From sequence record OL362041.1: a DNA stretch of 64,000 nt. One strand, given 5' to 3'. Origin of the DNA: Escherichia phage vB_Eco_OMNI12. The notes below the pieces were generated by a model. It did no database searches and was not told where the DNA came from. It saw only the letters and a list, made by a program, of their open reading frames with translations. Each line of letters starts with the position of its first letter. Position 1 is the stretch's first letter. Positions 1 to 61,156 of the stretch are shown piece by piece. The position numbers were made by a program, and so were the translations under genes.

Positions 1-165
1 CCAAGCTTCATTCCTGTTGGACATTATTTTCGTATATTCTGATTTAAATGCATTCTTAAGCATAGATTCAGTAACTATATGCTCTTCATTAGAAAAATTA
101 TTTCTCAGAATATATCGTTTTATTTCAGGAACAGTTAATAGATGCTGTCCAGTTGAATATTCCAT
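1..165 (-). CDS. hypothetical protein, partial (gene downstream of 46, runs off window)
   Basis: Minus-strand ATG at 165-163 with GGAGG 6 nt upstream; frame open to window edge. Confidence 0.4.
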   Translation of the reverse strand, partial: MEYSTGQHLLTVPEIKRYILRNNFSNEEHIVTESMLKNAFKSEYTKIMSNRNEAW

Positions 166-220
166 GTTTTTCCTCCATAGAGATTATACTCTAATAAATT
201 AAAGCATAATCTCTTATAAA

Positions 221-1903
221 TTAAACCATTACAGTAAACCGACCAACTTTCTTCATTTGAAGATGCTGACCATATGCTTGTGGGTCATGGTCTCTATGCG
301 AAATAACAAAAACGTTAGTATTTTTTAAACTATCTAAAATAGTTGAAATAGCTTTTACACCTTCAACATCAGTTGCTGAATCAAAAACTTCATCAAGAAT
401 TAGTGTGTTTATTTTAACACCTGAAACTTTTTCAGCAATATCACGCCAAGTAAATAAAAGCGCAATATCAATTCGTGCTTTTTCACCTTGACTAAATGAA
501 GCATAACTAAAATCTTCACGACCACGGGATTTAATTGTCTCATTAAATTCTTCATCTAATGTAAACACATAATCCGCTTCCATTATTTTAAGATAATGGT
601 TAATCTGCTTATTAAATAATGGAATGTACTTTTTAATAATAGCACCTTTAATACCAGAATCTTTGAGCATGTCAGTCAAAATTCCTCTGTGGTATTTTTC
701 CATTACTAAATTAGTTTTTGTCTTAACAATTTTATCAAGTTCTTCTTGAAGCAGTGCTATTTCATCAGCATGGTCAATAAACTCAGATGATGCTTTTTCT
801 ATAGCCGCTTTAACTTTTTTAGCTTTATCTACCGTCGTGATTAAGGATTGCTTTTTATTGCGAATATCATTCGCCAACGTCTGCTGGGTTTTAATATTAT
901 CTCGGTATTCATCAACAAGAACTTTTAAATTATCACGATGTGTTGAAAGCTGTTCAAACGAATGCGTGCATTCAGAAACTTTATCTTTAATTTTAGAAAC
1001 AACTTTATCACCGGAACTTAATTGTGACAAACAGGTTGGACATAATCCACCTTCGTGATACATATTAATGACTTTATTATACGAGTCAATTTTTGATTTA
1101 ATTAAAAATGCTTCTTGACCGATTTTATTAAATGCATCAGTTGGGTCTTCATCCAAAACAATATTAACTAATCTTTCGTTAGCTTCTTCTATTTCCGATT
1201 TTAGCGTTCTAGCTTCTTTTGCCAAATCATCATACATATTTTGTAGACGAGTAAGGTTGTCACCCGTTAATTTTTTCTGGCGTTCAACGTTATCATTATA
1301 TATTTTAATTTGTTGGATAATACTATCTTTTTTAACATCAAGCACTTGGTTTTGTGAATTTAATTCACGTATTAGTGCTTTATTAAGCTTATCCATTTCA
1401 GCTAATGTTCCTACCTCAAGCAGGTCTTCCACAAGCTTTCTTCGCGCCGGGGTCGACAAACCCATGAAAGGGGTATACCCTGCTGTACCAAGGACAACAA
1501 TCTGCTTGAAACTGGCATATGACATTCCGATAAGCTGTTCAAATTCTGCTTGGAAATCTTTACTGCTGGCAGATTCATTAAGACGTGTACCGTTAACGGT
1601 GATTTCGAAAACGTTTGGTTTTTGTCCTCTTTTGATATAGTACTTTTTCTCATCATATTCCATCCACAGTTCAACTAAAAGTTCTTTCTTATTTGTGCTG
1701 TTTATTAATTGACCTTTCTTTACATCACGAAATGGCTTGCCAAAAAGCCCAAATGTGATGGCTTCTAACATAGTAGACTTACCACCGCCATTTCGTCCAG
1801 TAATAAGAGTTTTTTGAACCTTATCTAATTGAATGTCAACTCCATTTTGACCAACTGACATTATATTTTTATATTTTACTCTATTAAGTTTAAATGATTT
1901 CAT
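221..1903 (-). CDS. 46: recombination endonuclease subunit gp46 (Rad50/SbcC-like ATPase)
   Basis: 560 aa ORF; Walker A GRNGGGKST; long central coiled coil; length equals T4 gp46. Confidence 0.9.
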   Translation of the reverse strand: MKSFKLNRVKYKNIMSVGQNGVDIQLDKVQKTLITGRNGGGKSTMLEAITFGLFGKPFRDVKKGQLINSTNKKELLVELWMEYDEKKYYIKRGQKPNVFEITVNGTRLNESASSKDFQAEFEQLIGMSYASFKQIVVLGTAGYTPFMGLSTPARRKLVEDLLEVGTLAEMDKLNKALIRELNSQNQVLDVKKDSIIQQIKIYNDNVERQKKLTGDNLTRLQNMYDDLAKEARTLKSEIEEANERLVNIVLDEDPTDAFNKIGQEAFLIKSKIDSYNKVINMYHEGGLCPTCLSQLSSGDKVVSKIKDKVSECTHSFEQLSTHRDNLKVLVDEYRDNIKTQQTLANDIRNKKQSLITTVDKAKKVKAAIEKASSEFIDHADEIALLQEELDKIVKTKTNLVMEKYHRGILTDMLKDSGIKGAIIKKYIPLFNKQINHYLKIMEADYVFTLDEEFNETIKSRGREDFSYASFSQGEKARIDIALLFTWRDIAEKVSGVKINTLILDEVFDSATDVEGVKAISTILDSLKNTNVFVISHRDHDPQAYGQHLQMKKVGRFTVMV

Positions 1904-6348: not shown

Positions 6349-6567
6349 TTATTTCTCTAATATAAAATAAAAATCATCATCTGTTAAATGATACCGATAG
6401 TTTAATTCTACACCATTAGATTTAAAAGCGGTATCATACGGATTTTCTGGATCAATATCAATGTCAAGAGCTAAAACTTCCCTGAGATACATTTTAAGTA
6501 AATAGGGAATAGCTTCAACTTCAGGTATTTCTTCCAAGAATCCGGAGAGGTTAATCGTTAGCCTCAT
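6349..6567 (-). CDS. hypothetical protein
   Basis: ORF track 72 aa. Confidence 0.4.
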
Positions 6568-7108
6568 ATAAAAAATCCAAACTAGGAGAATCGTCTACAA
6601 CACTTTTCTTTTCAGCCCCCGGTGTTCTATAGGTTGATTCTTCGTAATGCGTCATTTTATCGTAGATGTCTTGAATAAAAGTTTCATCTACTAACGCAAC
6701 CATATCGTCGTCACGACTGTCATAGACATTGTGAACGAAGTAACTATATTTCTTTGCAACTTCCTTACGTTCTTTTTTAATACGTTGGACAAATGCATTA
6801 AAACAAGCTTGAGTTATATACGCATGTGGGTTTTTATATTTCGTTTCATCAAAATTGTGAAGCCCCTTAATAGAAGCTTCTATACCATCTGCAATCATTT
6901 CTTGTTTCCAAGACTGGGTGTATCCTGAAAAGTTGAAACGTTTAGATAAGCCTTCTGCAATAAGCATAATGGCTAATCCGATAGTATCATTCTGACGAAC
7001 TACTTTATTTGGGTCTTTATTATTTGCTAATTCTGTTTTCCAATCAATAATAGCTTGTAAAAGCTCTTTATTGTTTACGTAATTATATTTAGGCTTAGTT
7101 TCTGACAT
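6551..7108 (-). CDS. 55: late-transcription sigma factor gp55
   Basis: ORF 187 aa; start at third codon gives 185 aa as in T4 gp55; [11 protein letters not shown]-terminus. Confidence 0.85.
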
Positions 7109-7186
7109 TTTCACCTCTTAGCTCAATTCATAGATCTATTATATCATAATATTTGAAGATCTATCTTAAAGCATAGAGGATATCAG

Positions 7187-33022: not shown

Positions 33023-33553
<531 letters not shown>

Positions 33554-40543: not shown

Positions 40544-40834
40544 TCACCATACCATATTAATGTAAGTATACTCAATACATTCAAGATTTAAAGGATTCTT
40601 GAAAATATCATATTCAAGAGGGCCTTTTTCTGTTTCAATAAAGAAATCAAAGTTAACTGTGTTAAATTTACGGTCTTCCTTCACTAATTTAACTTGAGAA
40701 GATGAACGGTCAATGTAAACCTTTTCAACTTCAAAACATGTTAAAATGCCATAATCATCAATCAAAGCTTTAGCCGCGTCTTGATCATATTTATATCCAT
40801 TTTCAATGGATGATACTTTCGCATAAAGAATCAT
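40544..40834 (-). CDS. hypothetical protein
   Basis: ORF track 96 aa. Confidence 0.45.
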   Translation of the reverse strand: MILYAKVSSIENGYKYDQDAAKALIDDYGILTCFEVEKVYIDRSSSQVKLVKEDRKFNTVNFDFFIETEKGPLEYDIFKNPLNLECIEYTYINMVW

Positions 40835-42804: not shown

Positions 42805-42805
<1 letters not shown>

Positions 42806-43530
42806 TATAGTACCTTTAGTGTATTTTTAATTTTAGAAAAAAGTTCTTCAAGAGAACCATCGTTTGTAATTACTAAATCGCCATCACGAATTGGCAATCC
42901 AGCTTCTGTAATATGTGTATCATTGGATTTTTGACCAGGACGAACTACATGAATTACTGTAGCACCCATCGCCCTAGCCGCATCCATTTCATGATCTTGA
43001 CGGGTATCAGGAACGATATAATAATCATAACCTGAGTTAAATTTATCAAGATAATCTAAAGCAAATAATTTTACCCAGTACATGCGGTCGAAGTTATTAA
43101 CAATCAAATCCGTACCTAGGGCTTGCATCAGACGACGGACTGACCATTGATCTTCAATATTATTTATAACGTCAATAATCTTGTTAAATGCTACGGAATT
43201 AACTGATTCTTGTCCTTCGTCATCAAAAACAAACACACCTTTAATTGGGCTTTTACCATTAAGATAGCAAAATGCTTGTTCCATAATCGTGATTACTTCT
43301 AATTTAGTTAGATTTAAATTAGTCTCACGATCATAGTCAATTCCTTCAAACTCTTTACGAGTTAAGCAAGGATAGTCGGTATTTGCTGCAAATACTCCCC
43401 ATGCATAAGCCAATGCATCCTTAATAGGACCAGCAAGTTGGTATTTAACTGCAGAATAATTGCTCATGATAAAATCAGCAGTAGTATCTTTTCCACTACG
43501 CTTTACACCGCTTAAAAAGATTAGTTTCAT
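42805..43530 (-). CDS. 1: deoxynucleoside monophosphate kinase gp1
   Basis: 241 aa; P-loop GVKRSGKDT; length equals T4 gp1. Confidence 0.85.
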
Positions 43531-44216: not shown

Positions 44217-45041
44217 TTAAATATTTGACCAGACTTTGTTTGCAGAGAAACGTTTTCCTTTTGAAACGAACTGCTGAAGTGGCATTAACACAACGTTCGC
44301 CCAGTCTTTCGGGGCGATTTCAACAAGGCTACCCATAATATTACCAGGTATATATGCCTTAATCATTTGGTCTGCACCCCTAAATCCTTTCACTTGACTC
44401 CAATCAATTTTTAATTTCGTTTTATTAGTAATAGTAGGTGTATTTGAATATTGCTTTAAAAGCTCTTCTAGGAATTGCTGGCGAGCTTTAGGTGGAATAT
44501 AGTGCAAGTTCAATCCGTACATTAAATTATGCTTACCTAAACCAAGGTAAATTATCAAAGGAAATTTATCCCAGTAAGGAAGAGTTTCCTTGTGTTTAGC
44601 ATCATAAGCAAAAGCATATATTCGTCCCGGCTGCGGGCGAACAACTTTATGTCCTTTTACTTGCTTAATAGTTTCAGCAAACCACTTTCTGGTTTTATTA
44701 TTAATTGCTGCGCCTTCATTACGAATTTTATCACGTAATGTTTGCCTGAATGAATTTATCATAAGCAGTTGTCTTTCTTGCTTATTGAGTTTATTCATTG
44801 GTTTTGATTCAAGCTTTTGAATCTTTTCAGCCGTTTTAATTCCTGAAGCATATTTTGACATTGCTGAAGTAAACGTAGAGTATTTGATTCCTCTTTCTTC
44901 AGCAAATTGCTTTCCGGTCATTCCTTTTGCTTTGGCCTTTTTATATTCAAGACCTATCTGAATCCATTTCTTTTCGTTTAATGATTGCTTAACCTTTGGA
45001 ACTTGGGGAGTGCTTTCATTAATTATTTGAAAAATAGCCAT
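44217..45041 (-). CDS. 2: DNA end protector gp2
   Basis: 274 aa; length and position equal T4 gp2. Confidence 0.8.
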
Positions 45042-45493
45042 TATGCCCCCTTAAAGCCAAGAGCTCGTAATCCATCTTCTGTTAAAATTCTAAATTTTAT
45101 TCCACGCTTTTCAGCTAAAGCTTGAGCTGCTTTCCATTTGTCAGTATTAACGGAATATGTATAAATTTCATTCATAAATCTTTTCTTCGCTGCAGTTGTT
45201 AGATGTGCTGGTTTAACTGGTGGTTGTGTTTCTTTTTTAGGTTTTATTTCAATAAAAAATTCTTGTCCAGAAGAATCTTTCATCCAAATATCCATGAAGT
45301 ATCTACGTTTTTTCCCTTCTGCATTACAAAAATAAGGAATTACTGCTGTTTCACTACCCCATGCAATAATTTCTGGATTTTTATCTAACCATTCAAAAAA
45401 GAATTTTTCCCAATTTGATCTATACGTAATTTTTTTAGGGTCACCTCTATACTTTGATATATTTTTAGGAACCCATTTTCCAGAATATGCCAT
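45041..45493 (-). CDS. 4: head completion protein gp4
   Basis: 150 aa; length and position equal T4 gp4. Confidence 0.8.
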
Positions 45494-45504
45494 TGGATTC
45501 TCCT

Positions 45505-45512
45505 TATAAATA
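45505..45512 (+). promoter_or_regulatory. late promoter (TATAAATA) for gene 53
   Basis: Plus-strand TATAAATA 29 nt upstream of ATG 45541. Confidence 0.6.
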
Positions 45513-45519
45513 GATAATA

Positions 45520-45527
45520 TATTTATA
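45520..45527 (-). promoter_or_regulatory. late promoter (TATAAATA) for gene 4
   Basis: Minus-strand TATAAATA 27 nt upstream of ATG 45493. Confidence 0.6.
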
Positions 45528-45540
45528 AACAGGAGGGCCC

Positions 45541-46131
45541 ATGCTCTTTACATTTTTTGATCCGATTGAATATGCGGCCAAAACGGTGAATAAAAACGCG
45601 CCGACTATTCCTATGACAGATATTTTTAGAAACTATAAAGACTATTTTAAACGCGCTCTTGCGGGATACCGCTTACGTACTTATTATATCAAAGGTTCAC
45701 CACGCCCGGAAGAATTAGCAAATACTATATATGGAAATCCACAGTTGTATTGGGTTTTATTGATGTGTAATGATAATTATGACCCGTATTATGGATGGAT
45801 TACTTCACAAGAAGCAGCTTATCAAGCATCTATACAAAAATACAAAAATGTAGGTGGAGACCAAATAGTATATCATGTGAATGAGAACGGTGAAAAATTT
45901 TATAATTTAATATCATACGATGATAATCCATATGTTTGGTATGATAAAGGTGATAAAGCTAGAAAATATCCTCAATATGAAGGAGCACTTGCTGCTGTTA
46001 ATACGTATGAAGATGCTGTTCTTGAAAATGAAAAACTTCGTCAAATAAAAATAATAGCAAAATCAGACATTAATTCATTTATGAACGACCTTATACGTAT
46101 AATGGAGAAATCTTATGGAAATGATAAGTAA
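45541..46131 (+). CDS. 53: baseplate wedge protein gp53
   Basis: 196 aa; length and position equal T4 gp53. Confidence 0.85.
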   Translation: MLFTFFDPIEYAAKTVNKNAPTIPMTDIFRNYKDYFKRALAGYRLRTYYIKGSPRPEELANTIYGNPQLYWVLLMCNDNYDPYYGWITSQEAAYQASIQKYKNVGGDQIVYHVNENGEKFYNLISYDDNPYVWYDKGDKARKYPQYEGALAAVNTYEDAVLENEKLRQIKIIAKSDINSFMNDLIRIMEKSYGNDK

Positions 46132-47842
46132 TAACCTTAATTGGTTTGTTGGTGTTGTTGAAGATAGAATGGACCCATTAAAATTAGGTCGTGTTCGTGT
46201 TCGTGTGGTTGGTCTGCATCCACCTCAAAGAGCACAAGGCGATGTAATGGGTATTCCAACTGAAAAATTACCATGGATGTCAGTTATTCAACCTATAACT
46301 TCTGCAGCAATGTCTGGAATTGGAGGTTCTGTTACTGGACCGGTAGAAGGAACTAGAGTTTATGGTCATTTTTTAGACAAATGGAAAACTAACGGAATTG
46401 TCCTTGGCACGTATGGTGGAATAGTTCGCGAAAAACCGAATAGACTTGAAGGATTTTCTGACCCAACTGGGCAATATCCTAGACGTTTAGGAAATGATAC
46501 TAATGTATTAAACCAAGGCGGAGAAGTAGGATATGATTCGTCTTCTAACATTATCCAAGATAGTAACTTAGACACTGCAATAAATCCCGATGATAGACCA
46601 CTATCAGAGATTCCAACCGATGATAATCCAAATTTGTCAATGGCTGACATGCTTCGCCGTGATGAAGGATTAAGACTAAAAGTTTATTGGGATACTGAAG
46701 GATATCCGACAATTGGTATTGGTCATCTTATCATGAAGCAGCCAGTTCGTGATATGGCTCAAATTAATAAAGTTTTATCAAAACAAGTTGGTCGTGAAAT
46801 TACTGGAAACCCAGGTTCTATTACGATGGAAGAGGCGACGACTTTATTTGAACGTGATTTGGCTGATATGCAACGGGACATTAAATCACATTCTAAAGTA
46901 GGACCAGTCTGGCAAGCTGTCAACCGTTCTCGTCAAATGGCGTTAGAAAATATGGCATTTCAAATGGGTGTTGGCGGTGTAGCTAAATTTAACACAATGT
47001 TAACTGCTATGTTAGCCGGAGATTGGGAAAAAGCATATAAAGCCGGTCGTGATTCATTGTGGTATCAACAAACAAAAGGCCGTGCATCCCGTGTTACCAT
47101 GATTATTCTTACGGGGAATTTGGAATCATATGGTGTTGAAGTGAAAACCCCAGCTAGGTCTCTATCAGCAATGGCTGCTACTGTAGCTAAATCTTCTGAC
47201 CCGGCTGACCCTCCTATTCCAAATGACTCGAGAATTTTATTCAAAGAACCAGTTTCTTCATATAAAGGTGAATATCCTTATGTGCATACAATGGAAACTG
47301 AAAGCGGACATATTCAGGAATTTGATGATACTCCTGGGCAAGAACGATACAGATTAGTTCATCCGACTGGAACTTATGAAGAAGTATCACCGTCAGGAAG
47401 AAGAACAAGAAAAACTGTCGATAATTTGTATGATATAACCAACGCTGATGGTAATTTTTTGGTAGCCGGTGATAAAAAGACTAACGTCGGTGGATCAGAA
47501 ATTTATTACAACATGGATAATCGTCTTCACCAAATAGATGGAAGCAATACAATATTTGTACGTGGCGATGAAACTAAGACAGTTGAAGGCAATGGAACTA
47601 TCCTAGTTAAAGGTAATGTTACTATTGTAGTTGAAGGTAATGCTGACATTACAGTTAAAGGAGATGCTACCACTTTAGTTGAAGGAAATCAAACTAACAC
47701 AGTAAATGGAAATCTTTCTTGGAAAGTTGCTGGGACAGTTGATTGGGACGTTGGTGGTGATTGGACAGAAAAAATGGCATCTATGAGTTCTATTTCATCT
47801 GGTCAATACACAATTGATGGATCGAGGATTGACATTGGCTAA
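46115..47842 (+). CDS. 5: baseplate hub / tail lysozyme gp5
   Basis: 575 aa; lysozyme domain ADMLRRDEGLRLKVYWDTEGYPTIGIGHL; C-terminal VxGxxxxx beta-helix repeats. Confidence 0.95.
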   Translation: MEMISNNLNWFVGVVEDRMDPLKLGRVRVRVVGLHPPQRAQGDVMGIPTEKLPWMSVIQPITSAAMSGIGGSVTGPVEGTRVYGHFLDKWKTNGIVLGTYGGIVREKPNRLEGFSDPTGQYPRRLGNDTNVLNQGGEVGYDSSSNIIQDSNLDTAINPDDRPLSEIPTDDNPNLSMADMLRRDEGLRLKVYWDTEGYPTIGIGHLIMKQPVRDMAQINKVLSKQVGREITGNPGSITMEEATTLFERDLADMQRDIKSHSKVGPVWQAVNRSRQMALENMAFQMGVGGVAKFNTMLTAMLAGDWEKAYKAGRDSLWYQQTKGRASRVTMIILTGNLESYGVEVKTPARSLSAMAATVAKSSDPADPPIPNDSRILFKEPVSSYKGEYPYVHTMETESGHIQEFDDTPGQERYRLVHPTGTYEEVSPSGRRTRKTVDNLYDITNADGNFLVAGDKKTNVGGSEIYYNMDNRLHQIDGSNTIFVRGDETKTVEGNGTILVKGNVTIVVEGNADITVKGDATTLVEGNQTNTVNGNLSWKVAGTVDWDVGGDWTEKMASMSSISSGQYTIDGSRIDIG

Positions 47843-48371
47843 TATACTTCCAATGAGCGCTGATTTAGGAGAATCCATGGAAGGTTCTTCTATCGACGTC
47901 ACCTTTACCGCTCAATTAGAAACAGGTGAAACGTTAGTATCTATAAATATAACTAGTTACGAAGAAACTCCTGGGGTTTTAGTAGAAGAAAATCGCTTAT
48001 ACGGAACATATGAATCTGTGTTTGGATTTGGAAATGACGCGTTGAAATATCGTTTAGGCGATGAATTTAAAACTGCTGCTTCATGGGAAGAACTTCCTAC
48101 TGATTCTGATACTCAGTTGTATTTATGGAAAGCTCCTCAAAACCTCCAGAAGACATTCACTTACGAAGTAACATTAATATATGACTACCAAGAACAAAGT
48201 GAATCTGGAGGTTCTGGCAGTAATTCTAGGTCATCTTCTGATACTACTGAACCGACGGATCCTCCTGCTCCAGTAAGAAAAACTCTCGTTAAAAATTATA
48301 CTAAAACTATAGTTGGAAATTGGAGTCGTTGGGCTAATAAATTAAGAAGCTATGTGTATGAGAGGTCATAG
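47814..48371 (+). CDS. 5.1: gp5.1-like protein
   Basis: ORF track 185 aa; start may be Met at 47853. Confidence 0.55.
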
Positions 48372-53751: not shown

Positions 53752-54748
53752 TTCAAGTGTTATCTATCGTGCGATAGTTACTTCAAAATTTAGAACAGAA
53801 AAAATGTTGAATTTTTATAATTCAATTGGAAGTGGTCCGGATAAAAACACTATCTTTATCACATTTGGAAGATCAGAACCGTGGTCATCAAATGAAAATG
53901 AGGTGGGCTTTGCCCCACCTTATCCAACCGATTCTGTATTAGGCGTAACTGACATGTGGACGCATATGATGGGAACAGTAAAGGTTCTTCCATCAATGCT
54001 TGACGCAGTTATTCCTCGTCGAGATTGGGGAGATACTAGATATCCGGATCCATACACATTTAGAATTAACGATATTGTAGTGTGTAACTCAGCTCCTTAC
54101 AACGCTACTGAATCAGGCGCAGGCTGGTTAGTATATCGTTGTTTAGATGTTCCTGATACTGGAATGTGTTCAATCGCATCTTTAACTGATAAGGATGAAT
54201 GCCTTAAATTAGGCGGAAAATGGACACCTTCTGTTAGGTCAATGACTCCTCCTGAAGGTCGAGGAGATGCTGAAGGAACAATTGAACCTGGGGACGGGTA
54301 TGTATGGGAATATCTTTTTGAGATTCCACCCGATGTATCTATAAATAGATGCACGAATGAATATATTGTGGTTCCTTGGCCTGAGGAATTAAAAGAAGAC
54401 CCGACTAGATGGGGATATGAAGATAATCTCACTTGGCAACAAGATGATTTTGGATTAATTTACCGGGTTAAGGCAAATACTATCCGTTTTAAAGCATATT
54501 TAGATTCAGTTTATTTTCCTGATGCTGCATTGCCAGGAAATAAAGGATTTAGACAAATATCAATAATCACGAATCCTCTTGAAGCTAAAGCTCATCCAAA
54601 TGACCCAAACGTTAAAGCTGAAAAGGATTATTATGACCCAGAAGATTTAATGAGGCATTCGGGCGAAATGATTTATATGGAAAATAGGCCACCTATTATT
54701 ATGGCAATGGATCAAACAGAAGAAATCAATATTCTGTTTACATTTTAA
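53744..54748 (+). CDS. 8: baseplate wedge protein gp8
   Basis: 334 aa; length and order equal T4 gp8. Confidence 0.85.
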   Translation: MNDSSVIYRAIVTSKFRTEKMLNFYNSIGSGPDKNTIFITFGRSEPWSSNENEVGFAPPYPTDSVLGVTDMWTHMMGTVKVLPSMLDAVIPRRDWGDTRYPDPYTFRINDIVVCNSAPYNATESGAGWLVYRCLDVPDTGMCSIASLTDKDECLKLGGKWTPSVRSMTPPEGRGDAEGTIEPGDGYVWEYLFEIPPDVSINRCTNEYIVVPWPEELKEDPTRWGYEDNLTWQQDDFGLIYRVKANTIRFKAYLDSVYFPDAALPGNKGFRQISIITNPLEAKAHPNDPNVKAEKDYYDPEDLMRHSGEMIYMENRPPIIMAMDQTEEINILFTF

Positions 54749-59698: not shown

Positions 59699-61156
59699 AT
59701 GATTGAATTAAAAGAGTTACCTTTTGTTGATAGCGTTCCTGACGAAGGTCAGGAACGTATTTCATGGATTAAAAATGGTGAAGAAATATTAGGAGCTAGT
59801 ACTAAGTATGGAAATGATGGATCAATGAATAGACCAATTGTTTCCGTGTTTAAAAACGTCGAAGTTCTTGATGAAAATGTGGGAATTCTTAAAACTGCCA
59901 TTGAAACATCACAGAAAGATATTAAAACAATTCAAGGAGTTTTAGATGTATCAGGAGATATAGAAGCACTATCGCAGATCAGTGTTAATAAAAATGACAT
60001 ATCGAATTTAAAGACACTTACCAGTGAACACACTGATATATTAACTGGAACTAATAATACAGTTGACAAAATTATTGCTGATATAGGTCCATTTAATGAT
60101 GAAGAAAACTCTGTTTATAGAACAATTAGAAATGATTTATTGTGGATTAAACAGGAATTAGGACAATATTCTGGCCAAGACATTAACGGTCTTCCTGTTG
60201 TTGGTAATGCTAGCACAGGAATGAAACACAGAATAATAACAAATAGTACATTATTATCTTCACAAGGCATTCGTTTAAGTGAATTAGAAAATAAATTTAC
60301 TGAATCTGACGTAGGATCATTAACTGTTGAAGTTGGTAAATTACGTGATGAACTTGGTAATAAACCAGTAGATTTTGGGCCAAATATTTATAATAGATTA
60401 AACACCATAGATGATAAACAAACTTTAATAATTTCTGATATAGCAGAAATTAAATCTTCTATTGGATACCCAGAAAATGTTTCTATAATAACAGAAATTA
60501 ATAATAACAAAAGTAGCATTGAAGCTATTAATAATGAATTAAATCAGAGTGAAGGTGTTAAACAGCGCTTAACGGCTATTGAAACTTCTATAGGTTCAGA
60601 TGATATTCCTTCTAGTATTAAAGGAAAAATTAAAAATCACACAACTTCTATTGAGTCTTTAAACGGAATTGTTGGTGAAAACACTTCGTCTGGTTTAAGA
60701 GCGAATGTTTCGTGGTTAAATCAAATTGTTGGAACTGACTCCAGCGGAGGACAACCGTCTCCTTCTGGATCTCTATTAAATAAAGTTTCAGTGCTTGAAG
60801 GAGAAGTTTCAGTTTTAAACAATAATGTTCAAAATATACAAGTTGAAATAGGAAATAATAGAACAGGAATTAAAGGTCAAGTTATTGAACTTACTTCACT
60901 TATAAATGGAAATAATCCTGACGGATCAACTGTTGAAGAACGAGGATTAACTAATTCTATAAAAACGAATGAAACTAACATTGCGGCAGTCACGCATGAA
61001 GTAAATACAGCTAAAGACAATATATCCTCTTTACAGAGCAGCGTTCAAGCTCTACAAGAAGCGGGTTATATTCCTGAAGCTCCAAAAGATGGCCAAGCTT
61101 ACGTTCGTAAAGACGGCGAATGGGTACTACTTTCTACCTTTTTATCACCAGCATAA
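59699..61156 (+). CDS. wac: fibritin (whisker) wac
   Basis: 485 aa; heptad coiled coil; C-terminal foldon [27 protein letters not shown]. Confidence 0.9.

Follow-up and report, generated by a model that had tools for sequence, protein, structure and literature searches.

Late transcription in bacteriophage T4 relies on compact promoters, each built around an 8-bp box, TATAAATA, located at positions -13 to -6 relative to the transcript start (consensus and position: Nolan 2006; Geiduschek & Kassavetis 2010, PMC2988020). RNA polymerase carrying gp55 recognizes this box without a -35 element, and an AT-rich segment is found downstream of it (PMC2988020). About 50 late sites are listed for T4, not all of them proven to be active in vivo, and the most common functional variant carries an A at -13 (9 of the 50 sites) (PMC2988020). 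At gp55 promoters, the DNA is unwound from -12 to +2 (PMC7892883). The gp45 clamp is placed just upstream of the enzyme, lengthening its footprint by about 13 bp, and the activating nick must lie on the strand that is not transcribed. Late transcripts run in either polarity, whereas early and middle T4 transcripts all run leftward (PMC2988020).

Divergent promoters that share a short stretch of DNA have been described in bacteria (Warman, Grainger; PMC12825309). In these bidirectional promoters, a single sigma-70 -10 element is shared, and the divergent starts flank it or lie within it, typically with 18, 10 or 23 bp between them. Once polymerase is bound in one orientation, the opposite one is blocked, and the competition matters only at high activity (PMC12825309). 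In T4 and RB69, the divergent late baseplate genes 26 (minus strand) and 51 (plus strand) are separated by a gap of about 47-50 bp carrying one late box per strand:

T4 AF158101, 116429-116478: 26/51 gap
RB69, 118623-118669: 26/51 gap, with predicted late promoters Pl:118620(+) and Pl:118672(-)

A divergent late pair is also known between genes 4 and 53 of RB69 (gap 80627-80687), where a hidden Markov model (HMM) predicted Pl:80613(+) and Pl:80684(-); Additional File 5 of that work gives the RB69 promoter coordinates only and leaves their geometry undiscussed (Nolan 2006). Lastly, genes e, soc, 49 and I-TevI use a device in which early read-through RNA hides the ribosome site, while late RNA starts inside the hairpin (PMC3014915).

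The present work deals with the 4/53 gap of Escherichia phage vB_Eco_OMNI12, within a stretch of 64,000 nucleotides (OL362041.1), hereafter called the window. An earlier note on this DNA had proposed that the gap holds two late-type promoters, one on each strand, for the divergent genes 4 and 53, and this core claim is well supported by box placement, conservation and late timing. The gap very probably holds two bona fide T4-type late promoters, P53 and P4, whose activity would depend on gp55, gp33 and the gp45 sliding clamp. Such a divergent pair is already known in kind and at the homologous RB69 locus; the feature is real and deeply conserved, and thus ordinary.

The 4/53 gap and its flanking genes

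The window comes from a Tequatrovirus that is a very close relative of T4 (gp4 is 98.7% identical to T4 gp4). The gap is base for base the same as T4 AF158101 77338-77384, between T4 genes 4 and 53 (window-to-T4 offset of +31844), and the 651 bp around it are 100% identical in many T4-like isolates. It is 47 bp long (45494-45540), with an AT content of 68%, and is bounded by the gene 4 start codon (CAT on the plus strand, 45491-45493, minus-strand gene) and by the gene 53 ATG at 45541. The features of the locus, together with the gene of the late sigma factor, are as follows:

6551-7114, minus strand: gene 55 homologue (phrog_234, 'late sigma transcription factor', E=3.7e-69)
45041-45493, minus strand: gene 4, head completion/closure protein, 150 aa (phrog_218, head closure, E=1.8e-62; T4 annotation)
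45500-45504, minus strand: gene 4 Shine-Dalgarno (SD) sequence AGGAG, or AAGGAG with 45505 (from the sequence; CTCC block conserved in a 10-genus alignment)
45505-45512, plus strand: P53 late-promoter box TATAAATA, predicted -13 to -6 of the gene 53 transcript
45513-45519, between the boxes: AT-rich spacer GATAATA, 7 bp, containing both predicted starts
45520-45527, minus strand: P4 late-promoter box TATAAATA, predicted -13 to -6 of the gene 4 transcript
45532-45536, plus strand: gene 53 SD sequence GGAGG, 4 nt 5' of the ATG (GGAG block conserved in the 10-genus alignment)
45541-46131, plus strand: gene 53, baseplate wedge subunit, 196 aa (phrog_232, baseplate wedge, E=2.5e-73; T4 annotation)

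The earlier note had rightly named genes 4 and 53, given their matches to phrog_218 and phrog_232, and had placed both boxes in the 47-bp gap at the positions that the sequence gives. Read on the plus strand, the gap and its two start codons run CAT / TGGATT / CTCCT / TATAAATA / GATAATA / TATTTATA / AACA / GGAGG / GCCC / ATG, TATTTATA being TATAAATA read on the minus strand. The gene 4 SD abuts the P53 box and has one base in common with it. Gene 4 opens the leftward late unit 4-2-3, in which the gene 4 stop and the gene 2 start codon (45041) overlap, and gene 53 opens the rightward late baseplate cluster 53-5-5.1 and onward.

The trans-acting late sigma factor that recognizes TATAAATA has its gene in the window as well (gene 55 homologue). 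The gp33 and gp45 genes presumably lie outside the window, by T4 synteny. No promoter features are present in the T4 GenBank and RefSeq records. Both P53 and P4 reportedly figure among the roughly 50 late promoters of the T4 list (Miller et al. 2003). Transcript starts of T4 have been mapped by dRNA-seq, which yielded 150 phage transcription start sites (bioRxiv 10.1101/2024.04.04.588121).

Promoter characters of the two boxes

Both boxes are exact copies of TATAAATA, in which an A is tolerated at -13. Each is followed by AT-rich DNA, namely the spacer (6 of 7 positions AT) and then the opposite box, which is entirely AT. In the 10-genus alignment, no -35 positions are conserved in the gap, and a promoter scan of 41.5-49.5 kb found no sigma-70 -35/-10 pair within it. 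In these respects P53 and P4 resemble the roughly 50 listed T4 late promoters (e.g., P23), which share the 8-bp box, the lack of a conserved -35 and the AT-rich downstream DNA, and which also directly precede the SDs of late structural genes in a phage encoding gp55. There is no difference in kind: P53 and P4 are two ordinary members of that set, interleaved on opposite strands.

The absence of a -35/-10 combination and of any conservation at -35 positions also bears on a different reading, in which the boxes would be sigma-70 -10 elements of early or middle promoters, or the site of an AT-specific protein such as DsbA, instead of gp55 promoters. It is true that TATAAATA matches TATAAT at 5 of 6 positions (TATAAA), and that DsbA sites have been reported to overlap two late promoters, with micromolar affinity. 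However, DsbA is non-essential and a weak binder, genes 4 and 53 are late rather than early, and the invariant sequence is the full 8-mer, which extends beyond the hexamer. This reading is, thus, extremely unlikely.

A terminator-like match at 45532-45549 was also considered and discarded, as it corresponds to the SD/ATG region of gene 53; in total, terminator-like matches over 41.5-49.5 kb are no more numerous than in shuffled sequences.

Geometry of the divergent pair

Since the T4 late box occupies -13 to -6 relative to the transcript start (Nolan 2006), the predicted +1 of P53 is at 45518 (±1; T4 77362), rightward, and that of P4 at 45514 (45513-45515; T4 77358), leftward. The plus-strand box lies to the left of the minus-strand box, so that the 7-bp spacer contains both predicted starts, at a distance of 4 bp, and each box forms positions +3 to +10 of the opposite predicted transcript. 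The two predicted transcripts diverge without overlapping. Their leaders would be 23 nt long for gene 53, with GGAGG, and 21 nt for gene 4, with AAGGAG; folding found no structure in either of these two leaders (z of about 0). Each box is correctly spaced from the SD and start codon on its own strand.

The boxes form a crossed, interleaved pair. The earlier note had described them as back-to-back, which the order of the boxes contradicts, as the plus box is to the left of the minus box and both predicted starts lie between them. The back-to-back class, reportedly defined by Beck and Warren in 1988, is said to comprise non-overlapping divergent promoters with the promoter elements between the two starts. 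The elements of such a pair are upstream of, and outside, the region transcribed from the other promoter, whereas the 4/53 boxes are at +3 to +10. The same geometry corrects one of the two transcript ends that had been proposed. The plus-strand start at 45519 fits the prediction of 45518 ± 1, but the minus-strand end at 45498 is about 16 nt away from the 45514 or so predicted by the box; it cannot be the P4 start, because the gene 4 SD (45500-45504) is upstream of this position, which is only 5 nt away from the start codon.

The RB69 4/53 gap has the same crossed boxes and 7-bp spacer, but differs from that of the window by its length (61 bp) and by gene 53, which has a longer leader and starts with TTG. 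The 26/51 gap is comparable in its length, its divergent late baseplate genes and its one late box per strand. Unlike at 4/53, its boxes are fused in a 12-bp palindrome, TATTTATAAATA, with the TATA common to both; the minus box is on the left, which makes the pair truly back-to-back, and the predicted starts flank the shared element at a distance of about 23 bp from each other. The T4 26/51 pair therefore fits the definition of a shared symmetric -10, while the 4/53 pair, with two boxes 7 bp apart, does not. As in bacterial bidirectional promoters, one short, AT-rich and pseudo-symmetric region would drive divergent transcription at 4/53. In contrast to them, two separate gp55 boxes flank both predicted starts, 4 bp apart, there is no -35, and activation would come from a DNA-tracking clamp of defined polarity. 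T4-type phages thus offer two solutions for divergent late pairs, crossed (4/53, starts about 4 bp apart) and fused (26/51, about 23 bp), both of which are conserved across large distances.

Box counts and placement in the window

Exact copies of TATAAATA number 12 in the window, for 11.4 expected. With no overall enrichment, the 8-mer by itself is weak evidence, and the case rests on placement and conservation; a window-wide enrichment argument was consequently dropped. The core ATAAATA is even depleted, with 22 occurrences compared with 41.4 ± 5.9 (both strands, dinucleotide shuffles) and all 100 shuffles giving at least 22, which is consistent with selection against stray late boxes.

Placement is far more informative. 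Seven of the 12 exact boxes are followed, 12-50 nt downstream and on the same strand, by an SD, an ATG and an open reading frame (ORF) of at least 60 codons, while only 3.0% of all positions are so placed (binomial P=1.6e-8). The probability of finding both boxes in a single 47-bp gap is about 1.2e-5 with a Markov-1 background, and shuffling the bases of the gap itself produced both boxes in 129 of 2,000,000 trials. A mere coincidence, with two AT-rich 8-mers falling by chance within an AT-rich gap, could draw on the unremarkable whole-window count and on the base composition of the gap (68% AT). Yet the probability of the pair is only about 1e-5 to 6e-5, and the pair is conserved in every relative examined for it, down to a gp53 identity of about 56%, so that this explanation is effectively refuted. 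The paired boxes in the 4/53 gap are not a chance event.

The five exact boxes without an SD, ATG and long ORF in the 12-50 nt interval are the following:

40788-40795, minus strand
43161-43168, minus strand, within gene 1 (ORF 42805-43530)
47942-47949, plus strand
54340-54347, plus strand
60385-60392, minus strand, antisense, the long ORFs of that region all being on the plus strand

Elsewhere in the window, the lysozyme gene e (start at 33517) has tandem exact boxes directly upstream (33531-33538 and 33544-33551, minus strand), 13 bp apart. They are the classic late-promoter pair located in the inhibitory leader hairpin (PMC3014915).

Conservation among relatives

An alignment of 10 genera (Tequatro-, Mosig-, Karam-, Winkler-, Gelderland-, Dhaka-, Kanagawa-, Jiaoda- and Gapriverviruses, and Acinetobacter Hadassahvirus) gives a clear picture of what is maintained in the gap. 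In the plus box, ATAAATA is invariant, preceded by T or A at -13, and the minus box is invariant at all 8 positions. The boxes, SDs and coding ends are conserved, while the spacer, the flanks and the gap length vary. The crossed layout is likewise present in Bragavirus and in RB49-like Krischvirus. Among relatives, the spacer measures 6-15 bp and its sequence is variable.

A sample of IMG/VR, independent of this alignment, consists of 27 uncultivated viral contigs encoding gp53 (20 distinct gaps, gp53 identity of 56-100%). All 27 have a late box on each strand: the layout is crossed in 25 and fused, as TATTTATAAATA, in the other 2. The spacer of the crossed loci is 7 bp in 20 cases, 10 bp in 4 and 6 bp in 1. 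In each of these 25 loci, the minus box is invariant at 8 of 8 positions.

These data help in judging whether only one of the boxes works, for example P53, with the other being a by-product of AT-richness or of palindromic symmetry. In the record of Yersinia phage fPS-2 (LR215722), only the plus box is annotated, as a 'predicted late promoter', and the minus box was left unannotated. In addition, the activity of some listed T4 late sites is unproven (PMC2988020), and the tolerance of A at -13 of the plus box in many genera points to unequal constraint on the two boxes. Nevertheless, the box left out of the fPS-2 annotation, the minus-strand one of gene 4, is the more strictly conserved of the two, with 8 of 8 positions in every crossed locus. 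The A at -13 is itself the most common functional variant of T4 sites (PMC2988020), and Nolan 2006 scored both RB69 promoters, at 11.6 and 8.1 bits. Gene 4 is also late, with no other promoter candidate in the gap. It is therefore very unlikely that a single box is active, and the reading of two late promoters is retained.

Expression class and strand switch

In a T4 time course by RNA-seq and proteomics, genes 3, 4, 53 and 5 have late RNA and late protein (PMC9697503, Tables S2/S4). The late class of genes 4 and 53 is, thus, that measured in T4, which has an identical gap, and not in vB_Eco_OMNI12. The locus had been presented as an early/late strand switch; the coding strand does flip at the gap, but genes on both sides are late, and the gap is a late/late divergence separating two late units. 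Gene 2 has middle RNA and late protein in T4 (PMC9697503), so the leftward unit may have further inputs. As genes 4 and 53 are each the first on their own strand, neither can be supplied by co-directional late read-through.

The sign of the GC skew changes exactly at the gap (about 44750-46250), from about -0.05 to -0.13 up to +0.13, and the cumulative skew has its minimum there. In T4, oriE is located about 2 kb to the right of the gap (T4 79355, about 47511 in the window), and origins E, F and G are near such strand-switch points (PMC3016281).

The inverted repeat of the gap (box and SD facing SD and box) could also act as an RNA hairpin, in addition to its promoter function. Leftward read-through RNA, for example from the repEB/oriE side via antisense gene 53, would pair CCUCC...UAUAAAUA, in which CCUCC resembles an anti-SD, with UAUUUAUA...GGAG and hide the gene 4 ribosome site, and late RNAs would escape by starting in the loop. 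The gap RNA folds to -13.6 kcal/mol on the plus strand (z=-2.7) and to -14.6 kcal/mol on the minus strand, where the 3' arm contains the gene 4 SD. T4 early and middle transcripts, all leftward (PMC2988020), run in the appropriate direction, and gene e offers a precedent, with its late promoters inside the 5' arm (PMC3014915) and its SD in the 3' arm. However, the minus-strand value (z=-1.4) and those in a 101-nt context (z=+0.6 and -1.1) are not significant, and the stem is mostly A-U. The gene e hairpin is experimentally established and its early read-through abundant, whereas that of 4/53 is weak, predicted only, and a by-product of symmetry: a symmetric divergent pair with the same box and SD on both strands automatically gives an inverted repeat, and no separate selection is needed. 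Both arms are constrained for other reasons, hence beyond covariation testing, and since gene 4 RNA is late, there would be little early read-through for a hairpin to silence. A hairpin role is, overall, rather unlikely.

Proposed mechanism

For the two late promoters, a working scheme can be drawn from the known properties of the T4 system. Host RNA polymerase with the phage sigma factor gp55 would recognize each 8-bp box as a -10-like element and melt the DNA from -12 to +2. Initiation would then occur about 6 nt past the box, at about 45518 rightward (gene 53 and the baseplate cluster) and at about 45514 leftward (genes 4-2-3). The predicted bubbles extend over 45506-45519 for P53 and 45513-45526 for P4, and their overlap is exactly the 7-bp spacer. 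Each box would also serve as the AT-rich melting and initially transcribed region of the opposite promoter, and this double use may explain the compact and stable crossed layout.

As both open complexes would require melting of the same 7 bp and would cover nearly the same DNA, only one polymerase could occupy the gap at once. This mutual exclusion of the P53 and P4 complexes is suggested by their geometry; we infer it in the same way as the exact starts and the gp55 dependence at the gap. Clamp activation being polar, P53 and P4 would need clamps loaded in opposite orientations. The crossed pair would offer a small natural system in which to study polymerase competition and the clamp polarity rule. 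If the P53/P4 reading is true, a point mutation of one box (e.g., TATAAATA to TATACATA) would alter the late expression of the cognate gene.

A more ambitious proposal is that the crossed layout goes beyond compaction and is a selected device. Units 4-2-3 (head/tail completion) and 53-5 and onward (baseplate) would be forced onto a single site the size of one polymerase, with 7 bp of melted core in common, and only one clamp orientation could activate each direction. The ratio of left to right late transcripts would be set by the strand carrying nicks or primer ends, reflecting the direction of forks past the switch point near oriE, and the gene 4 ribosome site would possibly be unmasked only on late-initiated RNA. 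This proposal is considered unlikely.

From a methodological standpoint, a reading of the sequence alone can pick out real T4 late promoters, here at the price of three corrections, to the geometry, the minus-strand start and the gene class.

Variation of the locus in other phages

Other layouts are encountered outside the crossed set. Serratia phage SP1 has the fused TATTTATAAATA layout in its 4/53 gap in place of crossed boxes. In more distant relatives (Aeh1-like AP1, Schizo-T4 PVA8, Slopekvirus, a cyanophage and a Kuttervirus), the CTAAATA variant is found, mostly back-to-back. CTAAATA is the late consensus reported for Aeh1 (Nolan 2006). CTAAATA-type boxes replace TATAAATA at the gene 4 gap in PVA8, AP1, Rpl1, S-SSM7, Maynard and CfP1, and AP1 and PVA8 have a true back-to-back inverted pair, TATTTAG...CTAAATA. 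In Aeromonas phage 44RR2.8t, genes 4 and 53 are not adjacent: gene 4 comes after gene 5.1 on the same strand, and the divergent promoter pair is absent.

Some database records probably give wrong gene starts at this locus. The gene 4 start of the EP32a record, which overlaps gene 53, is probably over-extended, and the gene 53 starts of the SP1 and E26 records are probably placed too far downstream. Both the conserved MLF(S/T)FF start and the arrangement of boxes and SDs indicate a true gap of about 47-61 bp.

Homing-endonuclease genes are also observed next to gene 4. In some Karamvirus-like IMG/VR contigs, the late box and leader of gene 4 are directly followed by such a gene (HNH + NUMOD3). 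Its ORF spans at least 217 aa and runs off the end of the locus (1-651, minus strand), and a second contig has an identical upstream sequence. Judging from the sequence, it appears to be a mobile gene that landed exactly at the gene 4 start codon, replacing the 5' end of the gene and using the P4 promoter and SD. In Klebsiella phage 15882-3-4, the head-closure gene is split, with a homing endonuclease.
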